NCBI GenBank assembly: GCA_023231475.1
Contig: JALJEE010001112.1
Coordinates: 1 to 64,000, forward strand
Source of the DNA: Seison nebaliae
Taxonomy: Eukaryota
DNA: 64,000 nucleotides
Reading direction: 5' to 3'
Numbering within the stretch: position 1 is the stretch's first letter; the number at the start of each line of letters is the position of its first letter. The position numbers were made by a program, and so were the translations under genes. The notes beneath the pieces are model-generated. The model searched no databases, was not told the DNA's origin, and was given only the letters and a program-made list of their open reading frames with translations. This document shows, piece after piece, positions 683 through 59,548 of the stretch.

Positions 683-3600
683 ATGCAAGACAAAATCGGA
701 AAACTTCAATTGAACTACCAGAAATGGATGGATCAACAGAAGGAGAACTCGAAAACGGAAACAGTTAAAAGTGAGAAAGCTGTTCCCAAACCGATGAACG
801 AACCAGAAGACATGGAAGTGTCGGATGAAGATGAAGAAGAAGAAATGCCATTCGTCCAATCTCATAATGAAGCTCCAATAACGAAGATTGAGAAGACTGT
901 GGTTAAATTGAAAGAAGAGAAAATAACTCCTAAAATATCACAAGTTGGATTTCATGATCAGACAGAGAATTTTTTGAGTAGTCGTCCAATTATTAAATGT
1001 AAATTAGAGAATATTGATGATTATAAAATATCGATCGATAATATATTTAGTGATGAAACGAAGATTGATGAAGATCTCCACAACTCCAATGGGAAGCGAC
1101 CATTATTATTCTTATTTGAAGATGATGATGACGATGATGAATTTGGTGGGAAGAGAAAGAAAAAATTATCTATTAAAAAAGAAAGTAAAGAAGAAGAAGA
1201 AGATACTTTAGAGAAGTTTATGAAAGAGAATGATCGACAAAAGAATGCTGAAGATTTAATGAATAAGAATATGAAAGAGAAGAAATTATATGAAGTAAAA
1301 ACTAGATCAGGTAATATTACTACGAATGATTTGACGAATGGAGATCAAAAAAAGAAGAATATCAAAATACATTGTGAAATAACAAACGTTCTCCCAGACG
1401 AATCATTAGAAACGCCATTATTAAATAGTCATGTCATTGACAATTTGAATGAAGACGAAGATGATGATGATACATTGGAAGGATTAGTGGCATCATTAAA
1501 AAATCCAGGAAAGAATAAATCGGTTTATTATTAATTTCTTCCAATTCATATAATTGTTGATTAAAAGGAAATGTTGAAAACGGATCATTCTCGTGTTTAT
1601 TACAAAAAATTCAGAAAAATTTTCTATAACGAAATTCCTGAAATTTCAAAAATTTCTGATCATAAAATCCATCAATTACGTCAACAATGGGAAATTCATG
1701 TTGGAATATTTTCTTATTTTTTTTATTTAATAATAATTTTATTAAAAAAAAAAAAGGTGCGTGGACGTCGTTGTCCGAGACCGATAACGGAATGGGCACA
1801 TTGTGGTTTTTCAATTCGAATACTCGATACATTGAAAGCGTTAATTTTTCATTAATCTCATTTAATTTATTCTTCTTCTATTATAGACATGAATTCACTA
1901 AATCAACACCAATTCAATCTCAATCTTTACCGATTATTCTATCGGGCAGAAATATGATCGGTATCGCTAAAACAGGTTCTGGTAAGACATTAGCCTTTCT
2001 ATTACCCTTGCTCAGACATGTTATGGATCAACCACCATTAGACTCTGGTGATGGACCAATCGGTTAATTATTTTTCTTGTACTATTTAAATTATCATATG
2101 ACTTAATATTTAGCCATCATTATGGTTCCTACGAGAGAATTATGTCTTCAAATTTTCAAAGAATGTCGTCGATTTACAAAGTCGTTAGATTTGAATGTTG
2201 TACCAGTATATGGAGGTACTGGTATCGCTGATCAGATCGCTGAATTACGTCGTGGGGCAAATATCATCGTTTGTACTCCAGGAAGAATGATCGATCTTTT
2301 AGTTGCCAATAACGGTTTTATACAATTTTATTCGATTATTATGAAACTTTATAAATGAATTATAATTTATTTCTTCTTTTTCCAGGACGAGTAACGAATC
2401 TTCGACGAGTAACTTATGTTGTAATAGATGAAGCTGATCGTATGTTCGATATGGGATTTGAACCACAAGTCAAAAAAATTTTGGATAATATTCGACCTGA
2501 TCGTCAATTGGTCATGTTTTCCGCCACATTCCCCAAACCAATGGAGACACTTGCTCGAGCTTATTTAGATAAACCAATTGCTATCATTGTTTATTTAAAA
2601 AATTTTATTTAATTAATTTATATTTTCAGATTGGAGGACGAAGTGTCGTTTGTTCAGATATTGAACAACATATAATTTTGATAGAAGAAGATAAGAAATA
2701 TTTGAAATTATTAGAATTGTTGGGAATTTATACATTACAAGGATCAGTTCTCGTATTTGTCGAACGACAAGAAACAGCAGGTTAAATTCATATTTATTTC
2801 CTTCAAATCATTTTAATATTTGTGAAAAGATGAAATTCAAAAAAGTCTTTTGAGCAATATGTATACGTCATTCGCTTTACATGGTGGAGTAGATCAATAT
2901 GATCGAGCATCAATCATCAGTGATTTCAAGGCGGGAATAGTGACAGTTTTGGTCGCTACTAGTGTCGCCGCTCGAGGTTTAGATGTAAAGAAATTGATTT
3001 GTGTCATCAATTTCGATTGTCCGAATCATTACGAAGATTATGTTCATCGATGTGGACGTACTGGACGTGCAGGAAATAAAGGATTCGCTTTTACATTCAT
3101 CACACAAGATCAAGACAATTTAGCAGGCGATTTAGTCAAAGCGTTAGAGTTGAGTCATATTCCAATTCCGGAACAATTGGATTTAATGTGGAAAGCGTAT
3201 GTAGCTCGAATGGCAAAAGAAGGAAAACAAGTTCGTCTCACACATCATGGAACAATTTATCGAGGAAAAGGTTTCCGTTTCGACCATAAAGAAATGAAAT
3301 TAGCAGAAAATGAAAAAAAAGACAAAATGAATGTGATGGGCGTACCAGTCATTGATTCGGATGAGGAAAATGATGAGAAATTAAAAACCGTCGAGAATAC
3401 CATCAATGATTTTATGGGTAAATGGAAAACGGTAAATACAGATGTCACAGTCGATTCTGATAAACCGATGAATCAACTCATCAATATTGATGATGGAAAA
3501 AATATGAAAAATTTTACAGGATCTCGTTTCGAAGATATCGCTCAACCACCAACTCTACAAACTGACAATGGTGAGAAACCTCCAGGGATTGTCGAAATCC

Positions 3601-4375
3601 CAAAAGAAGACGGGTTTGTCATTCTCTTCCTTTTCTCATTAATCTTTCTCTTTTAAGAGTTTTTGATGAAATCAGATCAATTCGACATTCGGAAGCAGCG
3701 AAGAGAGCAGCTGAAAAATTGAATCGAATGTTAAATTATAATAAAACGACTAATGAATCATCTATCGATAATTATCGAAAAGTTTTATTTCATTATTTTT
3801 CCATTTTCCACTCTACTTATCTTCCATGTCAGTTATATATCGCCGAAATCGACATAAACGATTTACCACAGACAGCTCGTTTAAGATTGACTAGTCGAGT
3901 TTATTTTTTTATAATTTTATTTCATATCATCATCATATTCTCCCACCATAATTATTATATTCAGCAATTTGTTACAGAAATTCAAGAGATTACTAAAGTT
4001 GGAATTAGTGTTCGTGGCACTTATATCGATCCATCGAAGAAGAAAGAGAAAAAGAAAAGTTTTCTCATTTTTCTTTCGTTTCTATAATTATCTTTTTCTT
4101 CTTTCATTAGTAAGTGAAACTGGCGTTCTACCATTATCCGTATCAAATAACATCTTTTTGAATTTGGAAGCGCCAGAAGAGAAGAAACTTCATATTCGAT
4201 TAGAATCGTATAACGAAAATGATATTAGCTACGCTAAACAAGAAATCAAACGTATATTAAGAGAAGAATTGACGAAAGTTCATTTTCTTTAAATTTTCTC
4301 TTTTTTCAAGAATAATTCGTCGATATTTAGATTCCTATTCAATATTCAGTTCATCGAGGAAGATTTAAATTCTAA
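683..4375 (+). CDS. DDX46: DEAD-box RNA helicase DDX46/Prp5, 13 exons
   Basis: Motifs [39 protein letters not shown]; family-typical [13 protein letters not shown] and C-terminal [12 protein letters not shown]. Twelve GT-AG introns restore the frame (first 1523-1567, last 4278-4330). Confidence 0.95.
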
Positions 4376-58522: not shown

Positions 58523-59548
58523 ATGATGTACCTATTCTTTCTTTATCTTGTGGTAAATGTAGTTCTTCAATTAACGGATGGTCACAAACAAAAATCAAAT
58601 ATCATGCGCTTCGCAGAAAGTGTGAAAACGAAAAAAAATGGAATAACTAATATAAATTACGAGATTGACGTCGAGAAAACTGAAAAAGAAGATAAATTAA
58701 TAATTAAATCAATTGAAGGGAAGACGATAGAAGAAGAAATAATCGATGATCCATGTGAATCTGTTGTATCTAGTCCATTTGAGTTGGATTCAACTTGTAA
58801 ATCCAATTTTTTTTTAGCTCAAAAGAAGCAAATTATCTCGATTATGGTGGCAGGTAACAAAGAAGAATGGTTTGATAAATTTTCGCTAGCAGAAGAACTT
58901 ACGGATGAACCTCCTCCTAATTTATCAACAATCTCCGATACAACACCACATTACTTCCATGAATCTTTAAAGAGTTTGGTATACGATAAAGTGTCTATTA
59001 ATATATCATATCGATTTCATTCAAAATAATTTCCTTAAAGATTTTGTTTCAGATATATAACCAGAATCAAATAGTCATAGAAATTAAATTTAAAATTGAT
59101 GGATCACCACACCTGTTAACATGGTTTTCAAAAAAATATATCGAACATGTTAAAGTATTTGATACTGTTGGAGGAGAAATGAAAACAGCCATTAGCAACA
59201 GTAACTTAATCCCTAAGAGGTTAATAATATTCCTTATATCGTCTTTTTCCATATATATATATATATTTGAATATTGATAAATCACAGAAATTATCAATGT
59301 ATGAATAAATCAGGAATTAATGTTGCAATTATGACGTCGGAAATAACCCAAAATTCGTTGTTGGCTTTTACCGTATATACTAGTTGTATTACCGACGTAT
59401 TATGTAAAGACAAAGCACTTCCTCTGATAACTTATAGGTCAGAATCTACCGAGTATGGTTAGGTTATGATATTTATCTTTCAATATCTTTTCTAGAACAA
59501 AATTTGCGTTCAGCAAGTCATATAATCATAACGGGTCTTCAATTGTAG
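58523..59548 (+). CDS. Secreted orphan protein, 4 exons
   Basis: Signal-peptide-like N-terminus; three short GT-AG introns join the ORFs at 58523, 59044 and 59274 to a stop at 59546-59548. Confidence 0.55.

Follow-up and report, generated by a model that had tools for sequence, protein, structure and literature searches.

The window analysed here is a 64-kb stretch of the genome of Seison nebaliae (positions 1 to 64,000 of contig JALJEE010001112.1, forward strand), and our subject is the 5′ splice sites, or donors, of the introns within it. A seisonid rotifer, S. nebaliae has compact genes and a genome of about 44–46 Mb, as described in passages of its genome paper (PMC8351084). The window has a GC content of 26–35% (2-kb bins) and yielded a union set of 56 introns, 39 fixed by RNA and 17 taken from gene models. 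GTT opens 52 of them (93%, Wilson interval 83–97%), with three GTG, one GTA and no GTC, closely matching an earlier note on this DNA in which about 57 of 62 donors had been read as GTT.

The richest single source of introns is DDX46/Prp5 (683..4375, + strand), in which an exact match to the deposited protein P0121 and a profile of non-Seison homologues give 12 introns of 41–71 nt, all GTT..AG; a DDX46 exon is 100% identical to deposited SNEBB_010012. A GATA zinc-finger gene (6563..8200, − strand; RNA and Pfam) has two GTT introns (7045–6991 and 6870–6824). DNAI2 (11654..13769, −), an exon of which matches deposited SNEBB_010015, carries five GTT and two GTGAGT introns, supported by RNA in seven of seven cases and by P0241 and a profile. 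Three GTT introns interrupt ALYREF (14312..15162, −; RNA 3/3 and a PDB match) and two interrupt RBBP4 (15674..17307, +), where 16622–16788 and 16937–16981 are the sole feasible in-frame junctions and one transcript reads through the second intron. Two more lie in a secreted cysteine-rich gene with no Pfam match (17470..19366, +; gene model only). The BUD13 region (19344..20595, −; RNA 6/6 and Pfam) has six GTT introns, one of them in the 3′ untranslated region (UTR), and the caspase domain region (26017..26953, −; RNA 4/4 and P0361) has four; a caspase exon matches deposited SNEBB_010021. The GTT intron of a chitinase (GH18) is at 29433..29494 (−; model and P0361).

Further along, single RNA-supported GTT introns were found in a protein kinase gene (32145..32202, −), a NIF-domain gene that we take to be TIM50-like (34626..34680, +), a long SKI-domain gene (38239..38289, −) and RRM2 (44352..44401, +), and two in FDX2 (42276..42466, −; RNA and PDB). 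An unnamed gene (46491..47035, −; RNA) has four GTT introns around a 12-nt micro-exon (46972–46983), and THOC5 (48280..50357, −; RNA and Pfam) has three coding GTT introns. Two apparent multi-exon genes at 51560–52500 and 57700–59550 (both +) had no homologue, no Pfam match and no spliced transcript among the matches listed, and these orphan regions (51.6–52.5 kb and 57.7–59.5 kb) were excluded from every intron count. By eye, some of their introns may start with GTA or GTG, and the second gene shows a frame change near 58520–58640 with no clear intron. No snRNA gene lies in the window: Rfam gave no match at gathering thresholds and one chance snoRNA match (E = 1.6), and U1 and U6 motif scans were at chance level or empty.

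Introns were rebuilt by four routes: a gene finder neutral at the third intron base (+3), deposited proteins mapped back to the DNA, profiles of non-Seison homologues and the mapping of published RNA transcripts. The gene finder was trained on long exons and required GT donors, with +3 left uninformative; it returned GTT in 39 of 43 introns, and three further neutral settings gave 40/44, 39/44 and 47/55. Even a prior that penalised T at +3 left GTT at 36 of 47, and a full canonical prior at 39 of 57. Two of the non-GTT calls from the neutral run (GTA in phosphorylase and GTC in ALYREF) are wrong according to RNA. Letter-for-letter back-mapping of deposited S. nebaliae proteins gave GTT in 12 of 12 DDX46 introns, in five of seven for DNAI2 (the other two being GTGAGT) and in nine of nine for a joined chitinase–caspase model, two of which look doubtful. 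Because the deposited models may have been trained on this species, we also scored all in-frame GT/GC..AG junctions up to 36 nt away against profiles of 38–39 non-Seison homologues. By this route, 19 of 21 introns were GTT and two GTG; GTT was the sole feasible donor in nine of the 19 and the winner by 8.5–35.8 bits in the other ten. The curated model-based list had GTT in 46 of 48 introns.

The RNA route used supplement 2 of PMC8351084, a GMAP table of Trinity transcripts from STAR-mapped RNA sequencing reads. At least 50 of its rows on the contig matched window coordinates and at least 39 of these lay inside the window; after gaps shorter than 25 nt were dropped, at least 40 remained, and these gave at least 39 distinct introns. 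Each of the 39 introns among the matches listed has a single canonical placement within its slide range, and these 39, seen as gaps in published transcripts, are removed from mature RNA. Their donors are GTT in 35 cases, GTGAGT in three and GTATGG in one. Compared with the gene models, 30 of the listed introns are identical, one shares its donor and has another acceptor, and eight are new; among these matches the RNA contradicts none of the modelled donors. No spliced row was found among the matches listed for DDX46, RBBP4, chitinase or the cysteine-rich gene (17.5–19.4 kb), the introns of which are model-based, and contigs from public runs over positions 1–2570 contain no spliced joint and are DNA-like in appearance. 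Separately, low-depth contigs (2.7–3.8×, run X2, 2108–2570) carry a diverged copy of DDX46 exons with about 87–90% likeness, in which most of the changes fall on third codon positions, and represent a second lineage. The earlier note had looked to RNA junctions as what could overturn its reading; those listed are predominantly GTT rather than GTR. RNA bears out its list of all-GTT genes for ALYREF, BUD13, the caspase, FDX2, RRM2 and glycogen phosphorylase, the models agree for RBBP4 and for chitinase (the latter also through P0361), and its count of 12 GTT donors in DDX46 is reproduced by the deposited protein.

The GTT majority in the window is real, RNA-confirmed and beyond chance. In the window's non-coding DNA, GT has T after it more often than any other base (0.44, against 0.24 for A), contrary to the earlier supposition that AT richness would favour GTA as much as GTT, and the interiors of introns contain 0.51 T, 0.33 A, 0.11 C and 0.046 G. 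Composition thus predicts 44–52% T at +3, and the excess over this is significant for the union set (p = 1.8e-11) and for RNA-fixed introns alone (p = 1.5e-7). Of 31 GT dinucleotides inside introns, 12 have T as the next base. Positions +4, +6 and +7 are at background level and +3 is well above it: at +4 the GTT class has T in 24, C in 13, A in 12 and G in three of 52 introns. The sequence after GTT thus carries little signal, as had been claimed of +4 to +6, and 48 introns show 23 different donor hexamers. The claim that +5 G is usually absent stands in part. It is rare, occurring in eight of 52 GTT donors, yet it is enriched overall (12/56 against 4.6% G in interiors).

All 56 introns are GT..AG, short (38–167 nt, median 50), U-rich and G-poor. 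Acceptors are TAG in 25, CAG in 19, AAG in 11 and GAG in one, with C or T at −3 in 44 of 56, so the ends are those of major (U2-type) introns with YAG-type acceptors; AAG is common among them. The U2-type GURAG donor consensus is absent from the majority, with a purine at +3 in only four of 56. Exon ends are A-rich (A at −3 in 29, at −2 in 31 and at −1 in 24 of 56; G at −1 in 21), and the last exon base is a purine in 45 of 56. Both −1 G and +5 G are enriched, 23 of 48 donors have neither, and no association between the two was found (p = 0.72). U12-type introns are characterized by an RTATCCTT donor and a TCCTTAAC branch point near the acceptor (PMC3488318, in the part describing these features). 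They were rejected here, since that donor is absent among the 56 introns, which show no positional branch-point signal between −22 and −4.

The earlier note missed a canonical minority. Four introns, all on the − strand, have a purine at +3: TAG/GTGAGT in DNAI2 (12841..12890; deposited protein and RNA), into which one transcript reads; AAT/GTGAGT in the same gene (13374..13424; deposited protein, profile and RNA); TTG/GTATGG upstream in THOC5 (50487..50529; RNA), the sole GTA donor, retained in one isoform; and AAA/GTGAGT in an unnamed gene (53104..53152; RNA), also retained in one isoform. All four have +5 G, compared with eight of the 52 GTT donors (Fisher p = 0.0013), and they fit a canonical U1 small nuclear RNA (snRNA) with predicted energies of −5.0 to −10.6 kcal/mol. 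Some transcript reads through three of the four, compared with five of 35 GTT introns (p = 0.02). Given this retention, non-GTT introns behave as if they were weaker substrates.

Two introns of glycogen phosphorylase bear on age. One (54264..54332, −; AGG/GTTAGA, phase 2) precedes a first full codon that aligns with residue 727 of human muscle phosphorylase, which places the intron after c.2177, where the human PYGM gene has a donor (c.2177+1G>A, reported in PMC7687836). The other (53998..54055, −; ATG/GTTTAA, phase 0) occupies the mammalian PYGM c.2379/2380 position, as the last exon begins at residue 794, equivalent to c.2380, where PMC8774685 places the acceptor of sheep intron 19. Both are RNA-confirmed and begin with GTT, and two of two thus lie at mammalian positions with phases agreeing. 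For the two positions compared, this implies that inherited introns were rewritten. Recently gained, Introner-like introns were accordingly rejected as the source of the pattern, given these shared positions and the diversity of donors.

Among described systems, the nearest likeness is one absent from the earlier note. In Entamoeba, according to the sections of Roy and Bowser on this genus (bioRxiv 10.1101/2022.06.08.495308), donors read GUUUGU(U) and U1 has co-evolved to ACAAAC; the same preprint describes a separate U1 change in Mastigamoeba. A diverged U1-C is a further mark of the Entamoeba-type system. As in Entamoeba, the genome is AT-rich and almost every GT..AG intron has U where a +3 purine would be usual (52/56 in Seison; 35/39 of the RNA introns listed), so the likeness at +3 is borne out. 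Entamoeba is intron-poor and rigid in its motif (GUUUGU in 88–90%, from the same source), whereas Seison is an intron-rich animal that keeps a canonical minority class, with only GUU fixed and GTTTGT in two of 56. Seison donors resemble those of Entamoeba at +3 but do not belong to an Entamoeba-type system. Paramecium also combines short introns with a three-letter donor consensus (GTA..TAG, in the excerpt of PMC5663052 used); its third letter, A, is the partner of position 6 of canonical U1, unlike the T of Seison. The +4 A-to-U switch in Saccharomycotina, linked to METTL16/SNRNP27K (PMC10581693, passages on this switch), is likewise a lineage-wide change of one donor position, but at +4, with unchanged snRNAs and in intron-poor fungi. 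U5-class (AG//GU) donors of animals and plants, as contrasted with U6-class (//GURAG) donors in portions of PMC11732430 and PMC11347140, share with Seison a weak intron side with exon-side pairing, and the strong //GURAG minority is also held in common; they differ in that the Seison majority has U at +3 and an exon-end AG in only eight of 48.

A further candidate was a shifted pairing register. Shifted-register donors of the GUUAAGU type, reportedly described by Roca and Krainer in 2009, are said to have the consensus displaced by one base, which puts U at +3, often A at −1, G at +6 and a T after it at +7. Because the required +6 G occurs in none of the 52 GTT donors, we excluded this register. 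A literature search covering mostly open-access papers found +3 U donors only for Entamoeba and no description for Seison or any other animal, and the passages found in the Seison genome paper (PMC8351084) mention introns twice without a donor motif. The GTT majority is apparently undescribed in an animal. A metagenome scan with Rotaria DDX46 returned 80 loci with best-segment identities of 31–66%; the matches were mostly uninterrupted and none could be recognised as rotifer. With no rotifer outgroup donors, the shift may be older than Seison or more gradual, and in bdelloids GTT may be a sizeable minority of donors.

How might such donors be recognised? The usual consensus, (A/C)AG/GURAGU, pairs with the U1 5′ end (PMC3488318, excerpt), and +3 and +4 lie opposite U1 pseudouridines 5 and 6, and at a later stage opposite U6 m6A43 and G44 (sections of PMC8283771 and PMC11732430), with U6 G44 the base opposite +3 (PMC11732430, same section). 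As C is absent from +3 in all 56 introns (11% of interiors) and A occurs once (33% of interiors), the simplest explanation is an A opposite +3; U6 G44 is disfavoured as the reader of this position because C would pair with it at least as well. The altered donor recognition proposed earlier therefore stands in so far as the preference at +3 is specific for U (T in 52 introns, C in none, A in one and G in three) beyond composition, ancient positions included. The explanation we put at about an even chance is that the spliceosome is the ordinary major one and that the snRNA base facing +3, most likely U1 position 6, has changed to A. Under this proposal, intron definition by length and A/U content would come first, and a variant U1 end (ACUAAC or ACAAAC in place of ACUUAC) would bind GUU through a minimal core of three pairs. 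The A-rich ends of exons could then pair with U5 loop 1, and donors mismatched at +3 would persist only with a good match at +4 to +6, as in GTGAGT. The broader statement, that an intron-rich animal re-coded the donors of tens of thousands of inherited introns, with U taking the place of the +3 purine alongside a change in the pairing base of U1 or U6, and that GTGAGT donors are a relic class spliced with lower efficiency, we hold tentatively and with slightly less confidence.

Several observations weigh against a changed snRNA base. The median duplex energy of GTT donors is −1.7 kcal/mol with either canonical U1 or ACUAAC and −1.4 kcal/mol with ACAAAC; since a variant U1 gains only one pair, U1 pairing alone cannot select GTT sites. 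In GTT donors, neither +4 A (12/52) nor +6 T rises above background. For the four non-GTT donors, pairing is weaker with variant U1 (−3.2 to −6.4 kcal/mol) than with canonical U1, and the retention contrast involves just these four introns and unquantified isoforms. Nor do exons show GTT-specific avoidance under a dinucleotide-preserving null: the apparent avoidance of ARGTT (z = −3.8 under a plain codon shuffle) is gone for GTT and AAGTT once junction dinucleotides are preserved, and that of AGGTT shrinks to z = −2.3. Elsewhere, canonical snRNAs are retained by most lineages in which donors have shifted: the yeast U1 sequence ACUUACC is invariant in 227 genomes plus nine outgroups and the U6 ACAGA box in 240 species (both in the snRNA passages of PMC10581693), and Thecamonas and Micromonas have shifted donors with canonical snRNAs. 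Under every reading, most specificity likely comes from intron length and A/U content.

The strongest competitor, which we regard as a serious if less probable explanation, leaves the snRNAs canonical and attributes the shift to changed proteins (U1-C, LUC7, TIA-1-type U-tract binding, Prp8 or SNRNP27K/METTL16) that relax U1 pairing, with U at +3 selected either in a pocket of a protein or through a wobble with U6 (G44–U). It accords with the GTGAGT donors fitting canonical U1 best, and Seison DDX46 itself is altered. The DPLD motif has a recognised role in DDX46; in Seison it reads DTLE, as against DPLD in 85 of 105 homologues, Rotaria among them. The RS-rich start of the protein is lost, the first 250 residues containing two RS/SR dipeptides against a median of 27 in homologues. 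These changes imply that at least one early factor was remodelled, but DDX46 deviates at 52 of 278 near-invariant columns, so they may reflect general fast evolution. In yeasts, donor shifts track the loss of METTL16/SNRNP27K and not snRNA change (PMC10581693, excerpted), and GUUU can pair with an unchanged U6 ACAGA box, as parts of the Entamoeba work argue; T at +4 in 24 of 52 GTT donors fits such pairing. However, a G–U wobble fails to explain the absence of GTC (0/56), and the documented protein-linked shifts affect +4, not +3.

It is improbable that U1 has been lost or become sequence-blind, so that the length and composition of the intron would set the donor, followed only by U5 and U6. 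Predicted U1 pairing of GTT donors is very weak under all U1 ends tried, 23 of 48 donors do without both −1 G and +5 G, Cyanidioschyzon is reported to lack U1 (bioRxiv 10.1101/2022.06.08.495308, passage on this alga) and about 36% of metazoan BUSCO genes were not found in S. nebaliae (PMC8351084, in part). Against this stand the density of introns (56 in 64 kb, 12 of them in DDX46), the enrichment that −1 G and +5 G retain, and a GTGAGT class fully complementary to U1. A pair of U1 (or U6) species, with a variant serving the GTT majority and a canonical form the GTGAGT minority, appears marginally less probable again: the donor classes are sharply distinct, with no +3 purine donor lacking +5 G, but a single variant U1 would also take GTGAGT (five of six intron pairs) and the minority donors number only four. 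Unchanged recognition, with GTT arising from T-rich composition, misplaced junctions or recent insertion, is the least probable and was rejected for the window on profile, anatomy and RNA evidence: T is common after non-coding GT and in introns and the deposited models may be species-trained, but the excess holds on RNA-fixed junctions alone, is confined to +3 among +3, +4, +6 and +7, is not seen at GT inside introns and extends to ancient positions and to many different donor hexamers.

Pairing between U1 and the donor has been held fixed in animals, and published donor transformations come mostly from intron-poor microbes, in which few sites have to co-evolve. In Seison, as far as the window shows, the donor change has spread through an animal rich in introns and has taken in introns at ancient positions, with the donor losing almost all other information. 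The standing question of whether donor motif and snRNA co-evolve or proteins absorb the change, and of how genomes cross from one code to another, becomes directly testable here with public data. In practical terms, programs for gene finding and splice scoring that were trained on GTRAG will rank S. nebaliae junctions wrongly.

Several minor observations concern gene structure. Deposited SNEBB_010021 (26017–30080, −; 1153 aa) joins the GH18 chitinase to the caspase; a transcript at 27169–27954 reads straight through the 208-nt intron on which the join depends, and the last intron of the model excises open frame from the caspase, so the fusion is likely an annotation artefact. BUD13 transcripts (18500–19447) continue by way of the 104-nt GTT intron in the 3′ UTR and overlap, in antisense, the final 850 nt of the cysteine-rich gene on the opposite strand. 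DDX46, ALYREF, BUD13 and THOC5, all four of them RNA-processing genes, are found within 50 kb (683–50500), probably by chance. Lastly, a MITE-like inverted repeat at 61391–61740 has arms of 52 nt that are 92% complementary and 246 nt apart.

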